Origin: an uncultured Planctomycetia bacterium
Lineage (GTDB): Bacteria; Omnitrophota; Gorgyraeia; 2-02-FULL-51-18
Assembly: GCA_964642015.1 (NCBI GenBank)
Contig: CAZXLF010000006.1
Coordinates: 58,661-122,660 of the forward strand
Reading direction: 5' to 3'
DNA length: 64,000 nucleotides
The notes under the pieces were generated by a model that saw only the letters and a program-made list of their open reading frames with translations, searched no databases and was not told where the DNA came from. Positions 18,221-62,975 of this stretch are shown piece after piece. The translations under genes and the position numbers were made by a program. Positions within the stretch are counted from its first letter, which is position 1. Each line of letters begins with the position of its first letter.

Positions 18221-19684
18221 TTAAGCTGTCGGAAGTTCGGGATAAGCCGAACCGCCGTGTTCATGAATATCAAGACCCTGTAATTCCCCCTCTTTGGAAA
18301 CACGCAGAGTTCCTGTCAAATTCACTAGCCACATCAAAAGCAATCCACCAAAGAAGGCTCCGGCACCGATGGAAGCATTGCCAATGACTTGCGCAATGAA
18401 TTGATCCCAACCACCACCATAAAGCAACCCTTTGACCACCGCGGCTGCCGAATTGTCAGCTCCGGTCGGTGTAGGCGCTCCGAACTGTCCTGTAGCAAAC
18501 AAACCAAGACTCCAAGTGCCCCAAACACCGCACAGGCCATGTACCGGCCAAGCTCCGCACGGATCATCAACGCGAATATGTTCCAAAAAATCCGTGCCCA
18601 AGATAACTAATACGCCGGCCACAAGACCTATAACGATTGCACCACCGGGAGAAACCCAGTAGCAAGGACATGTGATCGCGACGAGGCCTGCTAAAATTCC
18701 ATTGCAAGTAGCTCCGCAATCCCATATCTTGGCCCGAGGATAAACAAAGAAAATGGCTGAAAGTCCTCCGGCGACAGCGGCAAGCGTCGTGTTGCATGCG
18801 ATACGGCCAATTCCTATCATATCCATTGCCGAAAGCGTGCTTCCGGGATTGAAACCGTACCATCCAAACCATAGAATGATCGTCCCAAGTGCTGCGATCG
18901 TCATGTCATGGCCTGGCATGGGTCCACCGCCATCCCTTTTGAACTTACGACCTAAACGAGGTCCTAAGACTATCGCACCTGCTAACGCGATCATACCGCC
19001 GATCGTGTGAACTACTGTCGAGCCTGCGAAATCATGGAACGCCGCCGGCTTGATTGTATTCAACCAGCCATCCGGACCCCATGCCCAATGACCCAAAATC
19101 GGATACATCACGCCGCTGACTACAAAACTATACAATAGGTCGCCGATGAATCCTGTGCGTCCAAGCATCGCACCGGAAGTAATAGTTGAGGTGCAATCCG
19201 CAAACGCAAACTGGAAAAGGAAATAGGCCAGCGTGGCCACACCCGTACTTCCATAGGTCTCAGGAATGCCATGCAGAAAATAATATTGATTTCCGATAAA
19301 GCCGTTGCCCGAGCCGAACATCCAAGCAAAACCCCATGCCCAGAACAAAATGCCGCAAAGACAAGTATCAATGACACCTTCCAGCAACACATTAATGGTC
19401 TCACGCGTACGGCCAAAACCCGCTTCCAGCATCATGAAACCGGCTTGCATGAAAAATACCAAAAACGCCGTAATTAGCACCCACATCGTATTGATCGGAT
19501 TAATATAAGGTGCCGGTGCAGCAGCGTCTTCTGCCCAAACCTTGGCTCCAAAATAAGCAGGCACAGCATAAATTATTGCAATGAGCAAGCCCACTCCAAG
19601 CATCTTACCGCCGAAGATCGCATAAAAGAGTTTCCTCTCTTTTGGATCCCGCATCTTTTCAAAAAACTTCTTAACTGACCTCAT
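18221..19684 (-). CDS. amtB: Ammonium transporter (Amt/MEP family)
   Basis: Amt signatures (MQAGFMMLEAGF, twin-His region) and a C-terminal tail. Confidence 0.9.
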   Translation of the reverse strand: MRSVKKFFEKMRDPKERKLFYAIFGGKMLGVGLLIAIIYAVPAYFGAKVWAEDAAAPAPYINPINTMWVLITAFLVFFMQAGFMMLEAGFGRTRETINVLLEGVIDTCLCGILFWAWGFAWMFGSGNGFIGNQYYFLHGIPETYGSTGVATLAYFLFQFAFADCTSTITSGAMLGRTGFIGDLLYSFVVSGVMYPILGHWAWGPDGWLNTIKPAAFHDFAGSTVVHTIGGMIALAGAIVLGPRLGRKFKRDGGGPMPGHDMTIAALGTIILWFGWYGFNPGSTLSAMDMIGIGRIACNTTLAAVAGGLSAIFFVYPRAKIWDCGATCNGILAGLVAITCPCYWVSPGGAIVIGLVAGVLVILGTDFLEHIRVDDPCGAWPVHGLCGVWGTWSLGLFATGQFGAPTPTGADNSAAAVVKGLLYGGGWDQFIAQVIGNASIGAGAFFGGLLLMWLVNLTGTLRVSKEGELQGLDIHEHGGSAYPELPTA

Positions 19685-23045: not shown

Positions 23046-24974
23046 TTAAAGCGCGTACACGCCTCTTTCGCCGGTGCGGATACGCAAAGCGCTCGATGCC
23101 TCAAGCACGATAATCTTACCATCCCCTATTCCGCCGGTACGCGTTGCCTCTGTGATCACTTCCATCGTCCTATCCACATCCCAATCCCTGACGAGTATCT
23201 CTACTTTGGATTTAGGAAGAAATCGAATCGTGTCTTCCGAGCTGGCGACCCCATTTGTATCACCTTTCTGGCGGCCAAACCCACGCACATCCGTCACGGT
23301 CATGCCCATTACCAGATTGTGCTGTTTGAGCGCTGAGACGATATCACCCAACTGTTCGGGACGGATCACGCAAGTGACCAGTCGAACACGGTAGGTTTTC
23401 TGCAAGCTGGTAACTGCGACATAAAGCAAGCTGATCAAAGCCCAAGCGCCCGCGATCACAAAGCAGATCTTCGCTTCATTTTTGGCATCGGCATTTCCAA
23501 TAATGTAAAGATAGAGAATTGCCCCGGCCATGATAACGTTCGTAATGACTCCGAGCGCAGGAATAATGCCGTGTTTCAAAAGATTAAAATCTTTCCGGCC
23601 TTTGAACGCGACTATTGTCCAAACACAAGTTAGTCCATATAGAATAAAGGTGCCCAAGTTCGAAGCCAGCGTAATTCCAGTCAGACCCACGACTGATCTC
23701 ACACCGACCGCGGCGATCAGTGAAGAAACCACCACTAATACCCAAAGCGCTGTGTGAGGTGTGCTGAATTTTCCGTGCATAAATCCAAGGAATTCGGGCA
23801 ACTCCCTATCCTCGGCCATGCCGCAAGTTACACGAACCGCTGTATTCATACAGCTTAGTGTCGTGCCAACGATCGCAATGGCGACGGTAATAGCTATGGT
23901 GATCATAAAGCCAAAGCCAATACCGGGAAGCACATGATCACCCAAAAGTTTGGCCAAGTCACCGATCGGAGCGCTCGACGCAGCGGCAGCGGCCATTCCT
24001 GTCACTGCGGCTGCGGGAACCGCTGCTACCGCGGGTGTTGTAGCAGTTGCTGCGACTGCGGCCACCGCAGGAGTGGTACCAGTCAATTTCTCACTGAGCA
24101 TAAAACCTGTCGCGAAGTATTCGAAAAGATAAGCAATTGCACCTTGAACAATAAGAGCGAGAATGATGGCTTTAGGAATGGTTGTTTCGGGATTCTTTGT
24201 TTCAGCAGACAAGGCCGTACAGCTCTCAAAACCGACCAAGATAAGAATCGCAACAGTCGATTGTACCAAAACACCTTGGAGCGAATGCGGTTTAACAACA
24301 TCCCAAGCACCACTGAAAACCCACTGAGTAGCATGCTCAGGGTTCGCAAAACGATAATAAATCGCCAAACCGCTGAAAACCACCAAACTCACCCATTGGA
24401 TCACGTTGATCCAAATGTTGGTGACCGTGGATCCTGTCACTCCGCGATAAGCAATGTATCCCGTGGCTAAAGCGAACACTCCACCGATGATCGTCAATTC
24501 CGTATTTGATAATGTTTTGCCGGTAAATTGGGTATAGATGTATCCGATCAATGTTGCCATGAAAGCAACCATAACGCCTGGATAGACCCAATAGAACAGA
24601 TGCGCGGCCCAACCAGTGAAAAGTTTGCTGACGCGGGCGATAGAAGTGGGTCCGTGATCCTTTACTTTACCTTGGCGATCCAAGAAAGCTTTTTCGGCAA
24701 AATATGCGCAGCTCGCAAAACCCGCTTCTGGATAGATCTTCGCGAGTTGAGCATAAGATAAAGCCGTAAGAAATGCGACCGCCAACGCAGCAATAATGCC
24801 GAACCAAATATCGCTGGCTACTGAAGCGCCGCTTGGAGCTGTCGCAGCCGCCTGCAACTGATATGTGATCCACAAAAACGCCCCTGGCGCGATCAACGCC
24901 ATCGCATTCATTGTGGCGCCCATCAATCCCAGGGTCGGTTTTAAGGTTCTTGAACTAACTTCTGTCTGTGCCAT
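23046..24974 (-). CDS. APC-superfamily permease with a C-terminal fused PII domain
   Basis: N-terminal 12-TM APC core (FESCTALSAETKNPETTIPKAII). An internal Ala/Thr/Pro/Val-rich low-complexity insert (TGTTPAVAAVAATATTPAVAAVPAAAV...). C-terminal approximately 110 aa are RVRLVTCVIRPEQL...GMTVTDVRGFGRQKG...FLPKSKVEILV...TGGIGDGKIIVLE...LRIRTGERG, matching GlnB nearly block-for-block but lacking Tyr51. Confidence 0.8.
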   Translation of the reverse strand: MAQTEVSSRTLKPTLGLMGATMNAMALIAPGAFLWITYQLQAAATAPSGASVASDIWFGIIAALAVAFLTALSYAQLAKIYPEAGFASCAYFAEKAFLDRQGKVKDHGPTSIARVSKLFTGWAAHLFYWVYPGVMVAFMATLIGYIYTQFTGKTLSNTELTIIGGVFALATGYIAYRGVTGSTVTNIWINVIQWVSLVVFSGLAIYYRFANPEHATQWVFSGAWDVVKPHSLQGVLVQSTVAILILVGFESCTALSAETKNPETTIPKAIILALIVQGAIAYLFEYFATGFMLSEKLTGTTPAVAAVAATATTPAVAAVPAAAVTGMAAAAASSAPIGDLAKLLGDHVLPGIGFGFMITIAITVAIAIVGTTLSCMNTAVRVTCGMAEDRELPEFLGFMHGKFSTPHTALWVLVVVSSLIAAVGVRSVVGLTGITLASNLGTFILYGLTCVWTIVAFKGRKDFNLLKHGIIPALGVITNVIMAGAILYLYIIGNADAKNEAKICFVIAGAWALISLLYVAVTSLQKTYRVRLVTCVIRPEQLGDIVSALKQHNLVMGMTVTDVRGFGRQKGDTNGVASSEDTIRFLPKSKVEILVRDWDVDRTMEVITEATRTGGIGDGKIIVLEASSALRIRTGERGVYAL

Positions 24975-50877: not shown

Positions 50878-51000
50878 GTTTTTCCCCTAGTCTTTTCCGA
50901 ACTCTCCCTAACCCTCTCTTTGAATAAAGAGAGGGGAAGTTCTGCACTTCTCCCCTCTTTAGTTAAAGAGGGGATTAAGGGGAGTTGGTATTTGGGACAG
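50878..51000. repeat. REP-B: paired-hairpin palindromic repeat (ccctctcttt-N-aaagagaggg plus ccctcttt-N-aaagaggg)
   Basis: Same family recurs at about 53225-53325 and 55595-55695. Confidence 0.5.
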
Positions 51001-52094: not shown

Positions 52095-52210
52095 ACTCAC
52101 CCTAATTGTCATCCCGAGAAGCCTAGTTTTTAAACTACGCAACGAGGGATCAAACGTTTGATCCCTCCTCTTTCCACTTGAAACTCGAATCGTCGGGATG
52201 ACAAATAATC
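52095..52210. repeat. REP-A: nested palindrome (gtcatcccgag...gagggatcaaacgtttgatccctc...cgtcgggatgac)
   Basis: Outer 11-bp and inner 11-bp perfect inverted repeats. Copies or variants at about 54440-54580, 56830-56960, 58110-58235 and 63945-63985. Confidence 0.5.
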
Positions 52211-52213
52211 TCA

Positions 52214-53125
52214 TCAGTCATATTTCGTATTCGAAAAAAATTCATAGCCCTTCAAAACACTCATCGCGGTCATTTGAACGATATTTCGGTAATCACCCAA
52301 GTCAGCGCGGCCAAGCGCCATGTAGTAAGAATAGCGGTCTTCTAAAGTAACCAGCGCCGGCGCAAAACCCTGCGTCAATAGCTGCGTGAGCATCAAAAGC
52401 CGTCCGACGCGGCCATTACCGTCAAAAAAAGGATGAATAGTCTCAAAGTCATGATGATCGATCGCTATTTTGCCAAGCGGATCCTTTCCGTATCGATTGG
52501 CGCCCCGCAGGAGTTTTTTCATCTTGAGAGGCACCTCCTGAAAAGAAGGCAGTTTTTTATCAGTATTCGTAAGATTAACGGCACCTGTCCGATACTTGCC
52601 GGGCAGTTTATTGCCGAAATTGTACAGGACGATCTCATGAAGTTTCAAAACAAAAGCTTCGTCGATCTTAAAGCCGGGCCGGACTTTTTCAATTAAAAAC
52701 TCAAGCGCGTTTTTATGGTTGATGGCCTCCATCACCTCAAAAGGCTCTTTGCCGCGGACCGTTTTTCCTTCGATCGCCCTTTGGGTTTCCCGCATCGTCA
52801 TACGGCTTCCCTCGATCGCGTTGGAATGATAGGTCATCCGCAGAAAAAATTCTTCCCGGAGCGTCCTATTTTCTTTGAGCATTTTTAGAGGATTCGGCCA
52901 TTTGGCACGCAGGTCCATGATCAGCCGCCGCAGGTCCGCGTGTTCTTTAAAAAGCTCATCAATATCTCTCGACTGGGCCGGATGGGGCTGAATCCCCTTT
53001 TCAAACCACCGGTAGACGGTCTTGTACGTCACTTCAAGGCGCCTCGCCAACTCTGACCGGCTTATCCCGGCTGTCTTGATAATAAGCTCTAATTTTTCTT
53101 TATCTGAGGGTAGGTATTTTTTCAT
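52214..53125 (-). CDS. fic: Fic/Fido-domain protein (class II, N-terminal inhibitory helix) with N-terminal HTH
   Basis: Fic motif [12 protein letters not shown]; inhibitory (S/T)xxxE(G/N) motif YHSNAIEGS upstream; N-terminal HTH ([20 protein letters not shown]). Confidence 0.85.
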
Positions 53126-53326
53126 ATTTTTATATAGGACATATGTCCTATTATTAGGAACATATATAATATACCATATGTCCTATCAAATATGCAACTC
53201 TCCCTAGCCTTGTCTAAACGCCCCCTGGATTTATCTAACTCACCCTAACCCTCTCTTTAAATAAAGAGAGGGAAAGTTCAGCGCTTCCCCCCTCTTATTT
53301 TTAAGAGGGGGCTAGGGGGCGTTAGT

Positions 53327-53614
53327 CTACCGTATCAACCAAACATAAATAAACGCGAATATCCCAAGAAAGAGAACCGACAGGCCCATGATACGTGTGT
53401 TTCTTATCTCCTTGGCCATAGAGATAGGTTCCATCCGCCAATTAATGAGCCGGTAAAAGGCTATTTGCAAATCGATGACTTTTTTCGGCTGCCAGGCCAC
53501 CAACGCTCCAAATGCTATCGCGATCACCGCCACGGTGAGCCGCATGCAATACGAGCATATCACTCCACCAAAACAGGTGCACTTCGCGAATAAAGACGGG
53601 AGTATGGGATTCAT
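53327..53614 (-). CDS. Small Cys-rich membrane protein (2-3 TM)
   Basis: CTCFGGVICSYC followed by TM helices; conserved within the duplicated cassette. Confidence 0.4.
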   Translation of the reverse strand: MNPILPSLFAKCTCFGGVICSYCMRLTVAVIAIAFGALVAWQPKKVIDLQIAFYRLINWRMEPISMAKEIRNTRIMGLSVLFLGIFAFIYVWLIR

Positions 53615-53690
53615 GGCTCTATTCTAACTCTCGCTAGCCATTTTGTGAATCTTGCTTCCTGGTGCGTTAAAAAGAGGATTTAAGGAGTGA

Positions 53691-53978
53691 TTATTTCAGA
53701 GCTTCTCGGATTGCATCGAGGCGATTTTCGGCGACTTTCAATAAAATTCGCGCTGCGCCATCAGGATAAGTGCGTCCCTGTTCCCAATTTCTAAGTGTAG
53801 CCGGACTTACGCCTATAAGTTCTGCAAACTGCGTCTGGCTAACTCGCCACTTCTGCCGTATAGATTTTATATCCATCGGCTTAACATCAAACACTCTAGA
53901 AGCTTTCCGTTTACCGGCATGGATCGTTCTCGCTTGATCAATACTTCTCAATAACTTCCTAAATGCTGCCTGCTTCAT
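53691..53978 (-). CDS. higA: HigA-type antitoxin (XRE HTH)
   Basis: HTH: SQTQFAELIGVSPATLRNWEQGR. 4-nt overlap with the upstream toxin gene (toxin-first order typical of higBA). Confidence 0.7.
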   Translation of the reverse strand: MKQAAFRKLLRSIDQARTIHAGKRKASRVFDVKPMDIKSIRQKWRVSQTQFAELIGVSPATLRNWEQGRTYPDGAARILLKVAENRLDAIREALK

Positions 53979-54295
53979 AACACTCCTGTTTTGATATAAG
54001 CCTGCAATTCCTTTAACTGACTTCTAGATAAGTCCCCATGACGAATCTTATCATACGCAAAGATCATATATAAGTTATCGTTTGACTGTATATAATAAAT
54101 GAGTCGAATACCGCTTCTCTTCCCCTTTTGTTTTTGGCGGGAGATCCATCGAACTTTTCTAAGACCTCCGCCGCCCGGGATCAAAACACCTTTTTTTGGA
54201 TCACGGACTAACAACCATTGAAGCGCTCTATATTCTTCATCAACAAGCAATGTCTTTATGACAGATGTGAAAATGGATGTTTCAATAAATACCAA
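53975..54295 (-). CDS. higB: HigB/RelE-family toxin (plasmid maintenance system killer)
   Basis: Resembles HigB-2/RelE-like killers (LRKVRW...GKRSGIRLIYY...MIFAYDK). A palindromic operator-like tatacgctattagcgtata lies just upstream. Confidence 0.65.
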   Translation of the reverse strand: MVFIETSIFTSVIKTLLVDEEYRALQWLLVRDPKKGVLIPGGGGLRKVRWISRQKQKGKRSGIRLIYYIQSNDNLYMIFAYDKIRHGDLSRSQLKELQAYIKTGVL

Positions 54296-54583
54296 CGGCG
54301 CCTTTCATTTATAAGTATACGCTATTAGCGTATGATTATACAAGTCTAAAGTTTGACTATAATAAACGATCCTTTCTTTCATATTAGAAGACGACGATAC
54401 ACCTTGAATTCGTTCAAAAATCTTCTGGATTTTTTTCGACTAACAGCGGGAGTTACTAATTGTCATTCTGAGTCCTAATGTCATCCCGAGGAGCTTATCT
54501 TTAAATCCGCGACGAGGGATCAAACGTTTGATCCCTCCTCTTTCCACTTGAAACTCGAATCGTCGGGATGACAAATAATCTCA

Positions 54584-55495
54584 TCAGTCATATTTCGTAT
54601 TCGAAAAAAATTCATAGCCCTTCAAAACACTCATCGCGGTCATTTGAACGATATTTCGGTAATCACCCAAGTCAGCGCGGCCAAGCGCCATGTAGTAAGA
54701 ATAGCGGTCTTCTAAAGTAACCAGCGCCGGCGCAAAACCCTGCGTCAATAGCTGCGTGAGCATCAAAAGCCGTCCGACGCGGCCATTACCGTCAAAAAAA
54801 GGATGAATAGTCTCAAAGTCATGATGATCGATCGCTATTTTGCCAAGCGGATCCTTTCCGTATCGATTGGCGCCCCGCAGGAGTTTTTTCATCTTGAGAG
54901 GCACCTCCTGAAAAGAAGGCAGTTTTTTATCAGTATTCGTAAGATTAACGGCACCTGTCCGATACTTGCCGGGCAGTTTATTGCCGAAATTGTACAGGAC
55001 GATCTCATGAAGTTTCAAAACAAAAGCTTCGTCGATCTTAAAGCCGGGCCGGACTTTTTCAATTAAAAACTCAAGCGCGTTTTTATGGTTGATGGCCTCC
55101 ATCACCTCAAAAGGCTCTTTGCCGCGGACCGTTTTTCCTTCGATCGCCCTTTGGGTTTCCCGCATCGTCATACGGCTTCCCTCGATCGCGTTGGAATGAT
55201 AGGTCATCCGCAGAAAAAATTCTTCCCGGAGCGTCCTATTTTCTTTGAGCATTTTTAGAGGATTCGGCCATTTGGCACGCAGGTCCATGATCAGCCGCCG
55301 CAGGTCCGCGTGTTCTTTAAAAAGCTCATCAATATCTCTCGACTGGGCCGGATGGGGCTGAATCCCCTTTTCAAACCACCGGTAGACGGTCTTGTACGTC
55401 ACTTCAAGGCGCCTCGCCAACTCTGACCGGCTTATCCCGGCTGTCTTGATAATAAGCTCTAATTTTTCTTTATCTGAGGGTAGGTATTTTTTCAT
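54584..55495 (-). CDS. fic: Fic/Fido-domain protein, duplicate copy
   Basis: Identical to 52214-53125. Confidence 0.85.
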
Positions 55496-55696
55496 ATTTT
55501 TATATAGGACATATGTCCTATTATTAGGAACATATATAATATACCATATGTCCTATCAAATATGCAACTCTCCCTAGCCTTGTCTAAACGCCCCCTGGAT
55601 TTATCTAACTCACCCTAACCCTCTCTTTAAATAAAGAGAGGGAAAGTTCAGCGCTTCCCCCCTCTTATTTTTAAGAGGGGGCTAGGGGGCGTTAGT

Positions 55697-55984
55697 CTAC
55701 CGTATCAACCAAACATAAATAAACGCGAATATCCCAAGAAAGAGAACCGACAGGCCCATGATACGTGTGTTTCTTATCTCCTTGGCCATAGAGATAGGTT
55801 CCATCCGCCAATTAATGAGCCGGTAAAAGGCTATTTGCAAATCGATGACTTTTTTCGGCTGCCAGGCCACCAACGCTCCAAATGCTATCGCGATCACCGC
55901 CACGGTGAGCCGCATGCAATACGAGCATATCACTCCACCAAAACAGGTGCACTTCGCGAATAAAGACGGGAGTATGGGATTCAT
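55697..55984 (-). CDS. Small Cys-rich membrane protein, duplicate copy
   Basis: Identical to 53327-53614. Confidence 0.4.
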   Translation of the reverse strand: MNPILPSLFAKCTCFGGVICSYCMRLTVAVIAIAFGALVAWQPKKVIDLQIAFYRLINWRMEPISMAKEIRNTRIMGLSVLFLGIFAFIYVWLIR

Positions 55985-56060
55985 GGCTCTATTCTAACTC
56001 TCGCTAGCCATTTTGTGAATCTTGCTTCCTGGTGCGTTAAAAAGAGGATTTAAGGAGTGA

Positions 56061-56348
56061 TTATTTCAGAGCTTCTCGGATTGCATCGAGGCGATTTTCG
56101 GCGACTTTCAATAAAATTCGCGCTGCGCCATCAGGATAAGTGCGTCCCTGTTCCCAATTTCTAAGTGTAGCCGGACTTACGCCTATAAGTTCTGCAAACT
56201 GCGTCTGGCTAACTCGCCACTTCTGCCGTATAGATTTTATATCCATCGGCTTAACATCAAACACTCTAGAAGCTTTCCGTTTACCGGCATGGATCGTTCT
56301 CGCTTGATCAATACTTCTCAATAACTTCCTAAATGCTGCCTGCTTCAT
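56061..56348 (-). CDS. higA: HigA-type antitoxin, duplicate copy
   Basis: Identical to 53691-53978. Confidence 0.7.
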   Translation of the reverse strand: MKQAAFRKLLRSIDQARTIHAGKRKASRVFDVKPMDIKSIRQKWRVSQTQFAELIGVSPATLRNWEQGRTYPDGAARILLKVAENRLDAIREALK

Positions 56349-56665
56349 AACACTCCTGTTTTGATATAAGCCTGCAATTCCTTTAACTGACTTCTAGATA
56401 AGTCCCCATGACGAATCTTATCATACGCAAAGATCATATATAAGTTATCGTTTGACTGTATATAATAAATGAGTCGAATACCGCTTCTCTTCCCCTTTTG
56501 TTTTTGGCGGGAGATCCATCGAACTTTTCTAAGACCTCCGCCGCCCGGGATCAAAACACCTTTTTTTGGATCACGGACTAACAACCATTGAAGCGCTCTA
56601 TATTCTTCATCAACAAGCAATGTCTTTATGACAGATGTGAAAATGGATGTTTCAATAAATACCAA
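56345..56665 (-). CDS. higB: HigB/RelE-family toxin, duplicate copy
   Basis: Identical to 53975-54295. Confidence 0.65.
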   Translation of the reverse strand: MVFIETSIFTSVIKTLLVDEEYRALQWLLVRDPKKGVLIPGGGGLRKVRWISRQKQKGKRSGIRLIYYIQSNDNLYMIFAYDKIRHGDLSRSQLKELQAYIKTGVL

Positions 56666-56968
56666 CGGCGCCTTTCATTTATAAGTATACGCTATTAGCG
56701 TATGATTATACAAGTCTAAAGTTTGACTATAATAAACGATCCTTTCTTTCATATTAGAAGACGACGATACACCTTGAATTCGTTCAAAAATCTTCTGGAT
56801 TTTTTTCGACTAACAGCGGGAGTTACTAATTGTCATTCTGAGTCCTAATGTCATCCCGAGGAGCTTATCTTTAAATCCGCGACGAGGGATCAAACGCTTG
56901 ATCCCTCCTCTTATCGATTTAAACTCGAATCGCCTGCCTGCCGGCAGGCAGGTCGGGATGATAAATAA

Positions 56969-57241
56969 TTACTCTGCCGTTGTAGGGTCTATCATTTGGC
57001 GAACAGCAGCAACCGAGTCGGCGGGAAACCCGCCTTGTTTTGCATGTTCGCGTATCATTGCCTCATTCGGCGAGATATAAACACAGTAGATCTTATCTTC
57101 CGTCACGTAGCTTTGAAGCCATTGTATTTCCGAACCAAGCTTGCGAAGAACTCCGCATGACTTCTGGGATATAGCCTTGAGATCCGCTGCGCTCATCTTC
57201 CCGGCGCCCGGAATATTTCGTTCGATTACATACTTTGGCAT
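56969..57241 (-). CDS. DUF4242-family protein
   Basis: MPKYVIERNIPGAGKMSAADLKAIS... resembles DUF4242 (recall). Confidence 0.45.
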   Translation of the reverse strand: MPKYVIERNIPGAGKMSAADLKAISQKSCGVLRKLGSEIQWLQSYVTEDKIYCVYISPNEAMIREHAKQGGFPADSVAAVRQMIDPTTAE

Positions 57242-58109: not shown

Positions 58110-58235
58110 TAATGAGACATAAACTGTCATCCCGAGCGTAGCGAAGCGAAGTCGAGGGATCTAAGAAACTCTTTTAGCATGCTAAGAAATTCTTTAGATT
58201 CCTCGACTCGGCCCATTGGCCTCGCTCGGAATGAC
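58110..58235. repeat. REP-A variant (gtcatcccgagcg...cgctcggaatgac with inner tcgagggatc...gattcctcga)
   Basis: Nested palindrome of the same family. Confidence 0.45.
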
Positions 58236-58285
58236 ATACTTCAGAGCCCTGTACCTAGCAATCTTGACACGCAGCGTCGTTTCAT

Positions 58286-59704: not shown

Positions 59705-60013
59705 TTAACCCTTTTTTAATTGAACATCTTCTGCGCCTAGCGGAAGTGGGAAATATCCAGCATATCCCGGATAGCCGGGATAACCAGGATAACCAGGATA
59801 GCCGGGATAACCAGGATACCCTTTATATGGTCTATTATAAAAATAAAGTAATCTATTTTTATGGTAGATGCTGCCCAAATATTCTCCATCAGTTGTAACG
59901 ACATCTGATTCATCCCAAGGCAACCAACCTATCCATTCGCCATCAATGTCGTATACATATTTACCCCTACGGAAGGCTATCCAATTGCCTGATGAATCAA
60001 ATAAATACTGCAA
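59705..60013 (-). CDS. Repeat protein with three G-x-WIa/YLG beta-repeat units and a (GYP)x6-7 tandem tripeptide repeat
   Basis: GNWIAFRRGKYVYD / GEWIGWLPWDESD / GEYLGSIYHKN repeats, then GYPGYPGYPGYPGYPGYPGYA encoded by a 9-nt DNA tandem repeat at about 59755-59820. Confidence 0.4.
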   Translation of the reverse strand: MQYLFDSSGNWIAFRRGKYVYDIDGEWIGWLPWDESDVVTTDGEYLGSIYHKNRLLYFYNRPYKGYPGYPGYPGYPGYPGYPGYAGYFPLPLGAEDVQLKKG

Positions 60014-60095: not shown

Positions 60096-60542
60096 TTATT
60101 TAAGCGGCTTTATTTTCTTAATAATTTTTATAATTTGGTTTTCAGATTTTAAGGAATGCTCCCAAAAGCGTTTAACCTCAAAACCTCGTTGCTTCAAAAT
60201 ACGGTTTATTCTTCTATCTCTCAATTGATTTCGTTCAATCTTTGTTTTCCAATATTTGCTTCTAGTTTTGGGAATATGCCCACAATCATGGCATCCATGC
60301 CAAAAGCATCCATCGACAAAAATAATAAGTTTTGTTTTTGGGAAAAACACATCAGGGCAACCAACCATACCTGCGGGATGCAAACGCCATCCTTTCAACC
60401 CATTCCGCATGAGCGCAGATCTGAGCTTTCTTTCCGTAGTCTTATTATTCTTTCCACGGATAGCTTGCATGGTTTTAGATCGAATGGTGCTTACTTTTAT
60501 AAACTTTCCATATCGTAGGGTTCGTTTAAGTATTTTTTCCAT
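60096..60542 (-). CDS. vsr: Very-short-patch repair endonuclease
   Basis: IIFVDGCFWHGC...H...W motif; abuts the C5-MTase gene. Confidence 0.85.
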   Translation of the reverse strand: MEKILKRTLRYGKFIKVSTIRSKTMQAIRGKNNKTTERKLRSALMRNGLKGWRLHPAGMVGCPDVFFPKTKLIIFVDGCFWHGCHDCGHIPKTRSKYWKTKIERNQLRDRRINRILKQRGFEVKRFWEHSLKSENQIIKIIKKIKPLK

Positions 60543-61814
60543 TTAAACACTTAAACTTAATTCAAGCTGCGCCTCAGCAGGTTCCTGAATTACCATTGTC
60601 TTGGAATCGAATTTGCCGCTTAACATGGCTATGAGGCAACGACCTACATAGTAAGCCAAATTAACAGGAACAGCATTTCCTATCTGCTTATATTGAGATC
60701 CCATAGATCCCTCAAATTTCCATTGGTCAGGAAAAGATTGAATTCGCGCAGACTCTCTTATAGTCAAAGGTCTTGTTTCTGTGGGGTGGCATCTTTCAGT
60801 CTGCCCCTGTGCGGGTGTACAAACCAGAGTCAAACTTGGCTCATCCCATGCCAGACGTCTCGCCATTCCTGTTTTACCACCTCCCAGGTAAAAGCTCCCT
60901 TGCATATATTCTTTTTGCAGCTCAATTGGTAAATCCCTCCAGTAACCTCCTTCGGGAACCTTTGACATAATATAAGCTTTTCTCTTCGGATACGTGGCAC
61001 CTTCTGATTTTGGACAACTCTTTAAAACATCTCGTAAAATAAGGCAATGGTCTCTCCCCTTAGGAAATATAAAAGGCATCTTCAAATCCTTTCTTATACC
61101 CAGTATGATCAGCCGTTCTCTCTTTTGAGCGACATCGAGATATTGAGCCTGAAGTAATTTCCACGTAACGTCGTATCCAAGCTCACTCAAACGTTCTATC
61201 ATGGCTTTTAGGGTTCTGCCATTATCGTGTTGAATCAACCCTTTAACATTTTCACCTAATGCTATCTTAGGTCTTATTTCTTCAACGCATCTAGCGAATT
61301 CAAAAAATAGGGTTCCTCTTGTATCAGTAAATCCTCGCCCAGCACCTGCATAACTAAATGCCTGACAGGGAAAGCCGCCCGCGACAACATCTACCTCATT
61401 GTAATAAGGCTTAAAATCGACGTTTTTTATATCGTCATGTATAACTGGCCATTTTGGCCTATTTTTTTTCAAAGTTGCAACGGCGTCCTTATCGAATTCA
61501 ACCAGCAATCGTGATTTGAATCCAGCATTTGAAAGACCTAAGGCTAGTCCACCTGCACCTGAGAATAGCTCGATAACCGAATATTTAGTGGATTTGGAAA
61601 CGTGGACGTGAAATCTATATTGCGATCTCTTGCTCTTTAGTCTTTTCTTTAAGTTCAAAATTTGCTGCACATCAAATAGCCTTCCATACAAACTCGACCG
61701 CTCTGATTTAATCAAACATTTCTTTTCCCAATACAAAATCTCTTTTGTAGACGTCTTTGTCTTTTCAGAAACTAATCCAAGCGGCAGTTTGTTTGAATTT
61801 ATATTATTAAGCAT
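60543..61814 (-). CDS. dcm: DNA (cytosine-5)-methyltransferase
   Basis: Motif I FSGAGG, motif IV GGFPCQAFSYAG, motif VI ENVKGL, motif X QIGNAVPV. There is a roughly 75-aa extension before motif I. The ORF-track start is TTG; the internal ATG is used. Confidence 0.85.
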   Translation of the reverse strand: MLNNINSNKLPLGLVSEKTKTSTKEILYWEKKCLIKSERSSLYGRLFDVQQILNLKKRLKSKRSQYRFHVHVSKSTKYSVIELFSGAGGLALGLSNAGFKSRLLVEFDKDAVATLKKNRPKWPVIHDDIKNVDFKPYYNEVDVVAGGFPCQAFSYAGAGRGFTDTRGTLFFEFARCVEEIRPKIALGENVKGLIQHDNGRTLKAMIERLSELGYDVTWKLLQAQYLDVAQKRERLIILGIRKDLKMPFIFPKGRDHCLILRDVLKSCPKSEGATYPKRKAYIMSKVPEGGYWRDLPIELQKEYMQGSFYLGGGKTGMARRLAWDEPSLTLVCTPAQGQTERCHPTETRPLTIRESARIQSFPDQWKFEGSMGSQYKQIGNAVPVNLAYYVGRCLIAMLSGKFDSKTMVIQEPAEAQLELSLSV

Positions 61815-61819
61815 ATTGT

Positions 61820-62527
61820 TTACCGATAAGTTCTCCAAAAGATCTTTTCCAATTCTTTGGCATCTTTAAGATTATCAATTTTTATTTCACACTCTTTCTC
61901 TAATATTTTGGGGATAACGTTAAATACTTTGAGCAGCCCATCTTTATCTCCCGTAATTAACTCATAGAATTTAAAACCTGATATCTCCAATATATGGTCA
62001 TTTTCAGGTCGCCTTTTGTGTGTCGTTCTATCAGATGGCACAAAAGATTTAAGATGGTTTTTGTCCTTTGTTATCATCATCACATGATACGCCATAAAAC
62101 CTCTATGCTCATTCCGTGATAAAGCCTCTTCCAATTCATCGTAAATCTTGATTAAATGAATGCCAGTGACTGTATTATATTTATTTTTTATTTCTGCTAT
62201 TATTTTTTTACTCTTATTGCGTACATCAATAAGGTTCCCTTTCCCTAAATTCTCCCACCCATCTATTCCTCCAATCACATCTTGATGGAATTCACCTACA
62301 GCATTTTGCATGGTCTTTTGAGCTTGGCGAGTAGCTTCTAATTTAAGCCATTCGCCATATGAGACGCCACCAACTAGCGCCTCATACATGGCTGAAAAAG
62401 CATCGAGAATATTTTCATCAATATTTGTATGTAAAAGAGCGGCTTGAGTCTTTGAAACTACTGCTTTGACCGCAGCTACAAGCTTTTCATTAGAAATAAA
62501 CGGAACTAACCTCTTGTCTACCAACAT
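61820..62527 (-). CDS. Type II restriction endonuclease (PD-(D/E)xK-like); family uncertain
   Basis: First gene of the operon, 5 nt upstream of the MTase. GIDGWENLGKGNLIDVRNK...EIKNK is compatible with a D...E-x-K core. Confidence 0.5.
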   Translation of the reverse strand: MLVDKRLVPFISNEKLVAAVKAVVSKTQAALLHTNIDENILDAFSAMYEALVGGVSYGEWLKLEATRQAQKTMQNAVGEFHQDVIGGIDGWENLGKGNLIDVRNKSKKIIAEIKNKYNTVTGIHLIKIYDELEEALSRNEHRGFMAYHVMMITKDKNHLKSFVPSDRTTHKRRPENDHILEISGFKFYELITGDKDGLLKVFNVIPKILEKECEIKIDNLKDAKELEKIFWRTYR

Positions 62528-62769
62528 TTAATAGTTACTCCTAGAAGGAACATGTTAGATTTATTAGATTTTAATAGTCTACTCCCCTCCCTTTTTGCTG
62601 TCACGAAAATCGTTTGCCCCGCACCCACCCCCGCGCTCACCCGCGCTCTCGGCGGTTTCGACAGAAAACGCCGTACTGCGTCAGCAGTTTTGCGTTAAAC
62701 CTACCCGCACTCAACGCAAAGAGAGCGCCATTCTTTTATATTTTATGTTTTTACTATTATTTCAAGGGA

Positions 62770-62975
62770 GCTGTGGGGTAGTCCAAGCGGCGAGTTCCGC
62801 AGGACGCGAGCATCCACAGGTATTTTCTAAGCGCGAGCGCCGAGGACCTGTCTGAGCCGTGGACTACCCCACAGCGACCGTACATTTACGGAGAAGTCAT
62901 GCAGCGTGATCTGAGAAACAGAGTGAGTCAAAGCTTTGAGCCGCGGACTAACCTACAGCGACCGTTAGTTAAACG
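62770..62975. other. Structured GC-rich intergenic element: 19-bp inverted repeat (ctgtggggtagtccaagcggc / gccgtggactaccccacag) plus two 37-nt imperfect direct repeats
   Basis: DR1 at about 62853-62890 (gagccgtggactaccccacagcgaccgtacatttacgg). DR2 at about 62932-62972 (gagccgcggactaacctacagcgaccgttagttaaacg). Lies between divergent R-M and ORF6N genes. Confidence 0.35.

Follow-up and report, generated by a model that had tools for sequence, protein, structure and literature searches.

The DNA analysed here (the window) is a stretch of 64,000 nucleotides (nt) from contig CAZXLF010000006.1 of assembly GCA_964642015.1, from an uncultured bacterium placed in the Omnitrophota. Between 52 and 57 kb it carries two head-to-tail, identical copies of a segment that encodes a Fic protein with a helix-turn-helix (HTH) domain, a small membrane protein and a HigBA-like toxin–antitoxin pair. 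Related nested-palindromic repeats flank the pair of copies on either side and also occupy the join (an R-D-R-D-R layout). Contigs assembled independently from sister metagenomes carry the segment once. We read the locus as a genuine tandem duplication of very recent date, polymorphic within the population, that arose by short-homology recombination or template switching between palindromes resembling repetitive extragenic palindromic (REP) elements, a reading to which we give a probability of about 70%.

A perfect tandem repeat of 2370 nt

The two units and the features that they contain are as follows.

52142..54511, no strand assigned: duplicated unit, copy 1; 2370 nt, identical to 54512-56881
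54512..56881, no strand assigned: duplicated unit, copy 2; 2370 nt, identical to 52142-54511, missing from the single-copy contigs L001 and L002
52214..53125, minus strand: HTH-Fic protein, copy 1; 303 amino acids (aa), N-terminal HTH, SNAIEG at residue 101, active-site motif at residue 231
54584..55495, minus strand: HTH-Fic protein, copy 2; identical translation
53134..53186 (copy 2, 55504-55556), minus strand: fic promoter/operator; a -35/-10 pair overlapped by TAGGACATATGG, with the perfect palindrome TAGGACATATGTCCTA abutting the start codon
53221..53326 (copy 2, 55591-55696), plus strand: type B double-hairpin repeat, between the membrane-protein gene and fic
53327..53614 (copy 2, 55697-55984), minus strand: small membrane protein; 95 aa, CxCx5Cx2C N-terminus, two hydrophobic helices
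53691..53978 (copy 2, 56061-56348), minus strand: HigA-2-like antitoxin; 95 aa, HTH_3 domain
53975..54295 (copy 2, 56345-56665), minus strand: HigB-2-like toxin; 106 aa, TTG start, 4-nt overlap with the antitoxin gene

When the window is compared with itself base by base at an offset of 2370, positions 52142-54526 equal 54512-56896, a run of 2385 nt with 0 mismatches. Past the mismatch that ends this run (T at 54527, C at 56897), 15 more bases are identical (54528-54542 and 56898-56912). A repeat finder agrees on the 2370-nt tandem repeat, and the 64-kb window contains no other long direct repeat. A perfect repeat of 2.4 kb cannot be of chance origin.

An earlier inspection of the window (the original prediction) had proposed two 2370-nt units at 52142-56881, with four open reading frames (ORFs) recurring at +2370. 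The full self-comparison shows these coordinates to be exact, and all four translations are identical between the copies. The same prediction had a third unit starting after the second, for about 30 nt. These nucleotides are the conserved core of the right-hand boundary repeat, which resembles the left-hand one, and there is no partial third copy.

Boundary repeats and a hybrid junction

The unit boundaries lie within repeats of one type, type A, which we call L (left), M (middle) and R (right).

52103..52207, plus strand: left nested-palindromic repeat L (REP-like, type A); outer stem TGTCATCCCGA/TCGGGATGACA, inner stem GAGGGATCAA/TTGATCCCTC; identical in the single-copy contigs
54474..54577, plus strand: middle repeat M, the novel junction; left part as in R, right part as in L; seen in no independent contig
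56844..56970, plus strand: right repeat R; the architecture of L with a 20-nt perfect palindrome inserted (56933-56952); the hairpin-loop base at 56897 is C, not T
54512..54526, plus strand: crossover interval ACGAGGGATCAAACG, 15 nt; the same in L (52142-52156), M and R (56882-56896), where it forms the 5′ arm of the inner hairpin

All three are compound palindromes of 105-127 nt with an outer 12-bp stem and an inner 10-bp stem, and all three are extragenic, lying between the stop and start codons of the flanking ORFs. As single-stranded DNA they fold with energies of -23 to -30 kcal/mol (z of -5.4 to -6.4 against shuffled sequences), and their 24-nt core palindrome occurs three times in the window, against 0 occurrences expected from shuffles. 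The placement of the unit boundaries inside nested-palindromic elements at 52.1, 54.5 and 56.9 kb is thus as originally predicted, and the label REP given to these elements fits insofar as they are palindromic, hairpin-forming and extragenic. It is loose usage in another respect, as only three to four copies are visible, all within 6 kb: type A copies in the window are L, M, R and one distant relative (58121-58240). The core pattern has 0 matches in the metagenomes of the Joint Genome Institute (JGI) and none in viral contigs. A scan against Rfam returned no known RNA family, only sub-threshold hairpin look-alikes, with microRNA models far under their gathering scores.

L and R are diverged copies of each other, about 88% alike, with 92 identical positions and small insertions and deletions. 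Their best ungapped stretch at a cut-off of at least 92% identity is 35 nt at 94%, and the longest exact word common to both is 15 nt. M is an exact hybrid of the two. The last difference between L and M lies at 52141/54511 and the first between M and R at 54527/56897. M follows R as far as 54526 and agrees with L from 54512 onward, which confines the switch from R to L to the 15 nt of ACGAGGGATCAAACG.

Several smaller features distinguish the type A elements. The distant relative at 58121-58240, located between a methyltransferase gene and a VF530 gene, has the same outer arms (GTCATCCCGAG/CTCGGAATGAC) and inner arms (CGAGGGATC/GATTCCTCG) around a different, longer interior. The insert found only in R (56933-56952) is a G+C-rich perfect palindrome of 20 nt, CCTGCCTGCCGGCAGGCAGG. 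Its last base, 56952, is also the end of contig L007 from run SRR12313480 (listed below), which suggests a presence/absence variant of the insert or a drop in coverage. M and R, and not L, carry an extra partial type A left arm, TAATTGTCATTCTGAG, at 54462-54472 and 56832-56842. It precedes the full arm by 18 nt and seems to stem from a small duplication confined to the repeat.

The type B repeat inside each unit belongs to a family unrelated to type A. It is built from two adjacent 10-bp hairpins (CCCTCTCTTT/AAAGAGAGGG and CCCCTCTT/AAGAGGGG) within an outer stem, and a relative 79% identical to it lies outside the unit at 50884-50989.

A single copy in independent assemblies

An exact-protein look-up retrieved contigs from independent (Logan) assemblies of four sister metagenome runs, SRR12313477 to SRR12313480; a literature search found no publications under these run accessions. 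The contigs that bear on the locus are the following.

L001, SRR12313479: 10,647 nt; 0 differences from the window minus one unit; order restriction-modification genes, R, one unit, L, O-methyltransferase gene
L002, SRR12313477: 3300 nt; single-copy structure, L and R exactly as in the window
L008, SRR12313478: 1306 nt; spans R into the unit
L003, SRR12313480: 2355 nt; the unit alone, 52172-54526, with its right end at the last base before M and R diverge (54526/56896)
L007, SRR12313480: 5954-nt contig, of which 4290 nt were read; right flank, stopping inside R at 56952

The single-copy allele, L-unit-R, is therefore present in assemblies of the same strain that carries the perfect repeat and the hybrid junction in the window. 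The contigs from SRR12313480 are those that are 100% identical to the window. In SRR12313479 and SRR12313477 the contigs run unbroken through L and R, so no other genomic sequence there has long words in common with either repeat. The interruption of contigs in SRR12313480 therefore suggests variants that only this sample contains. On its right, L003 ends at the point where M and R diverge, as would be expected of a graph branch made by junction M; this is suggestive, not decisive.

Three gene modules within the unit

HTH-Fic matches Pfam Fic (2e-19) and HTH_23 and, among structures in the PDB, a FICD homolog (1e-23). It carries the active-site motif HxFx(D/E)GNGRxxR at residue 231. The inhibitory motif (S/T)xxxE(G/N) occurs in the same chain, N-terminal to the Fic core, as SNAIEG, and it aligns with TVAIEG of the FICD homolog 5JJ6; HTH-Fic is therefore a class II Fic protein. 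With its inhibitory glutamate intact, such a protein is expected to be autoinhibited and not a free toxin. A genome-collection scan with the Fic protein found a sole relative, 60% identical, in an Elusimicrobiota metagenome-assembled genome (MAG), so the genome behind the window is not a species representative.

At the fic promoter the second operator half-site overlaps the -10 element. This layout is kept upstream of homologs that are 70-72% identical, in other genomes and in unrelated contexts, and a 60% identical Fic homolog has a different palindrome, ATATCATATGATAT, at both positions. The operator regions of these homolog loci lie at about 4880-5000 of L009, about 4140-4261 of L011 and about 4520-4652 of L004. 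The co-variation of palindrome and HTH domain across homologs argues that the HTH domain of Fic represses its own gene. HTH-Fic thus looks like an autorepressor, with the operator and the HTH domain as a candidate co-evolving pair.

The toxin matches V. cholerae HigB-2 in the PDB over residues 2-102 (5e-18), and its match to Pfam PF06296 is weak, under the cut-off. The antitoxin matches Pfam HTH_3 (3e-8), NCBIfam NadS (1e-13) and HigA-2 in the PDB (3e-10). The toxin gene lies upstream of the antitoxin gene and overlaps it by 4 nt.

For the small membrane protein no Pfam family scores above threshold. It belongs to a large, unnamed family, with 161 cluster representatives at E<=1e-3 and, in a profile search, 754 clusters at 90% identity, the named ones of which come from Omnitrophota; a few members match PF19701 weakly. 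The core QIAFYRxINWKxEPISMEKEIRNTRIMG is conserved, and the loop between the two hydrophobic helices is strongly conserved. The cysteines of the CxCx5Cx2C motif are conserved in close relatives, and a subgroup of the family has this N-terminus. Gene calls missed this gene in two of three sister runs, and a 72-aa version was called in one.

A conserved operon or cassette was considered for these genes and ruled out: the closest Fic homologs stand alone, adjoining GH57 and YchF genes, and the membrane-protein homologs have varied gene neighbours. The three modules of the unit are independent of one another, and each of them is common by itself in Omnitrophota; here they are locally juxtaposed and do not form a conserved cassette. 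The original prediction had spoken of a toxin cassette made up of a class II Fic AMPylator-type toxin, a Cys-rich small membrane protein and higBA. Its gene identities are borne out, for the TA pair by the matches to HigB-2 and HigA-2, for the 95-aa ORF by membership of a real family and for Fic by the class II motifs at residues 101 and 231. What does not stand is cassette status, as the modules occur separately elsewhere, and the description of Fic as a free toxin, given the autoinhibition expected of it.

Probable origin of the duplication

In the reading that we favour, the ancestor would have carried one 2.27-kb segment (higBA, the small membrane-protein gene and a putatively autoregulated HTH-fic) between the diverged direct repeats L and R. 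An exchange between R of one sister chromosome and L of the other would then have taken place, either by short-homology unequal crossing-over or by a RecA-independent template switch at a hairpin-stalled fork, and would have been resolved within the 15 bases perfectly common to L and R. The product would be L-unit-M-unit-R, in which M is the left part of R fused to the right part of L. Recent unequal recombination between flanking repeats had been predicted at the outset, and the hybrid M and the single-copy L-unit-R allele of the sister assemblies fit that prediction. Because the copies show 0 differences over 2385 nt, the event must be very recent, with no time for divergence.

The junction makes no fusion gene, and both copies of higB are preceded by the same sequence. 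With a promoter for each module and a non-coding join, no gene would be broken or fused, and the only effect would be a doubled dose of probably self-regulating modules; the duplication would be nearly neutral.

As to the pathway, the homology is perfect over 15 nt and reaches 94% over 35 nt, lengths that at best just satisfy, and may fall short of, the requirement for efficient RecA-dependent recombination. This short homology, together with the position of the switch in a hairpin arm, makes a template switch at least as likely as classical crossing-over. A recent paper on a software tool places the signature of homologous recombination from 35 bp at 92% identity upward and assigns microhomologies of 5-25 bp to a RecA-independent class (bioRxiv 10.64898/2026.05.22.727201); the duplication sits on the 35 bp/92% dividing line of that study. 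The same work describes bacterial tandem duplications between short repeats as well described and inherently unstable.

A number of observations weigh against this reading. No independent contig crosses M, and the passage from R into the unit is crossed by three and that from the unit into L by two. In SRR12313480 L003 starts at 52172, 30 nt inside the branch point expected at 52142, and L007, the contig of the right flank, stops at 56952 instead of 56867. M thus explains the breaks only partly: it accounts for exactly one of the three break points, and the other two need microvariation or poor coverage in palindromes. Nor are contig breaks at palindromic elements specific to the duplication, given that a pair of Logan contigs breaks, in single-copy context, within the outside type B copy, at 50912-50940. 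Finally, since recombination removes such duplications fast, one would not usually expect two copies to reach high frequency in the absence of selection or a bottleneck.

An expansion made by the assembler is the alternative that the original prediction had itself offered. The dominant genome would then have one copy, and the graph would have been looped by a rare junction, contributed either by a small part of the population or by chimeric molecules of the library that had arisen at hairpins, so that the assembler threaded the unit twice. Excised circles could supply such a junction too. Such an account gains from the single-copy arrangement in every independent contig that crosses a boundary, and from the source being a 168,803-nt metagenome-assembled contig, where traversal of a loop is decided by software. 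Unitig-based assemblers break at graph branches, and the contig that reads through in SRR12313479 implies that junction k-mers are absent or rare there. L003, however, terminates at the M/R branch point, and assemblers usually collapse perfect repeats and do not expand them. De Bruijn assemblers using k-mers of at least 21 are unable to fuse L and R without reads that bear M. Since L and R have no exact word in common above 15 nt, M cannot have come from a merger of k-mers at k of at least 21 without such reads; an exact hybrid at a 15-nt microhomology is not a product of k-mer collapse at usual k, and even an expansion would still need real junction-bearing molecules. M should accordingly be present among the reads on either account, and we regard assembly expansion as unlikely, if the most serious competitor of a genuine duplication.

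A duplication that is both real and useful would be held at high frequency by selection for a double dose of Fic, HigBA or the membrane protein, for instance in phage defence or stress tolerance. The duplication does stand at consensus level in one assembly despite the intrinsic instability of such duplications, and many genes around it are of defence or accessory kinds, among them an Eco47II-type restriction-modification system with Vsr. The copies number just two, though, and form no higher-order array, and two or three of the four sister runs yielded the single-copy allele on assembly. The operator palindromes of the fic promoter, conserved across homologs, would buffer the gene dose, as would the self-repression typical of HigBA. 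Adaptive amplification is, on this balance, decidedly improbable.

The unit might instead be a mobile cassette that excises as a 2370-bp circle through recombination of L with R and can enter the chromosome again at a type A repeat, in the manner of integron cassettes at attC sites, a scheme to which we give very little credence. M would then be the circle junction, and the apparent duplication would come either from such a re-insertion or from an assembler that read the chromosome together with the circle. A circle junction would be identical to M. The region 50.6-58.9 kb consists of minus-strand groups of one to three genes divided by nested-palindromic repeats, and the nearest solved relatives of the TA pair are V. 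cholerae HigBA-2, a pair located in the superintegron of that species. Against mobility, the window ORFs scanned (at least 150 aa) include no integron integrase or other integrase, no transposase and no REP-associated tyrosine transposase (RAYT). An integron is rejected in particular: by reading the sequence, no attC boxes of the R″/R′ consensus (RYYYAAC...GTTRRRY) are found in L, M or R on either strand, whose outer arms are TGTCATCCCGA/TCGGGATGACA. The repeats were found at no other locus, nor in JGI metagenomes or viral contigs, and in relatives the three modules occur apart, without such repeats. No empty site was seen. The neighbouring O-methyltransferase gene has 80 loci in JGI metagenomes, all at most 68% identical, among which there are no cassette genes, none of the repeats, no usable synteny and no empty site.

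More speculatively, the nested-palindromic repeats at 50.6-58.9 kb could be the working boundaries of an integrase-free cassette-shuffling region in Omnitrophota, a notion that we consider very doubtful. Hairpin recombination or template switching would in that case routinely duplicate, delete and perhaps circularise accessory and defence modules, and the duplication would be a single such event captured in progress. A recent duplication at short palindromic homology, polymorphic in the population, remains the reading that we prefer.

Genomic surroundings

Among named sequences, those closest to the large subunit of isopropylmalate dehydratase (888-2318) come from Candidatus Omnitrophica/Omnitrophota and are 81-84% identical to it, and Omnitrophota dominate the Fic and membrane-protein families. 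A phage or plasmid origin of the unit was rejected: there is no phage match, and the sole plasmid match covers 76 nt around the Fic motif.

The unit lies in an accessory region with methyltransferases and the restriction-modification system; the module at 60100-62530 comprises an Eco47II-type restriction endonuclease, a cytosine-5 DNA methylase and a Vsr-like gene. Beside it, at 62770-62875, stands an inverted repeat with 16-nt perfect arms, GCTGTGGGGTAGTCCA, 74 nt apart. A 102-aa ORF at 59705-60013 contains at least six tandem 9-nt units encoding a (G/A)YP repeat, PGYPGYPGYPGYPGYPGYAGY, at 59753-59824.

The rest of the window is ordinary chromosome, with ammonium transporters, permeases and two-component systems. 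Here a 642-aa protein (23046-24974) has a transporter domain of the amino-acid-permease type and, at its C-terminus, a P-II nitrogen-regulatory domain; its gene shares a cluster with an ammonium transporter gene (18221-19684) and a further two permease-like genes.

Comparison with known systems

Judged at the level of sequence, where every test for a tandem duplication was passed, the locus would be a new instance of a well-known process and not a new mechanism or system. If our reading is right, it is a clean natural example from an uncultivated phylum, with the parental and the product allele both in hand and the crossover mapped to 15 bases, and it shows short hairpin-forming intergenic repeats generating copy-number variation of defence-type genes. 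It is also a warning for users of this MAG: the copy number of the locus differs among assemblies of the same strain, and reads should be checked before a gene-family expansion is called.

The modules themselves have close counterparts. Like FICD/HYPE-type class II Fic proteins (PDB 5JJ6, 4U04), HTH-Fic has the HxFx(D/E)GNGRxxR motif and an N-terminal inhibitory helix in the same chain. It differs in having an N-terminal DNA-binding HTH domain where FICD has tetratricopeptide repeats and a membrane anchor, and its conserved upstream operator palindromes indicate a putative self-repressor. The TA pair shares with V. cholerae HigB-2/HigA-2 (PDB 5JA8, 5JAA, 8A0X) the toxin-first order with a 4-nt overlap, a near-full-length toxin match and the HTH match of the antitoxin. 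It lies in a chromosomal accessory region of an Omnitrophota bacterium, however, and not in an integron.

Integron cassettes and their attC sites likewise consist of short gene groups in one orientation between imperfect palindromes, with TA genes among them, and in both systems recombination at palindromes changes cassette copy number. Here, in contrast, there is no attC consensus, and no integrase was seen. At least two unrelated kinds of repeat are present, and the genes have their own promoters.

The closest parallel is with classical genetics, in which tandem chromosomal duplications of Salmonella and E. coli have their join-points in REP elements. The geometry is the same (repeat-segment-repeat-segment-repeat), with a hybrid join inside short, imperfect, hairpin-forming extragenic repeats; the copies are likewise perfectly identical, and the single-copy allele coexists in the same population. 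The unit of 2.4 kb is small beside the tens to hundreds of kb of the classical cases. Its repeats, which are long compound palindromes, agree at only about 88% overall and are perfectly identical over the 15 nt where the switch lies. The host, too, is of another kind, an uncultivated Omnitrophota bacterium known from metagenomes only.

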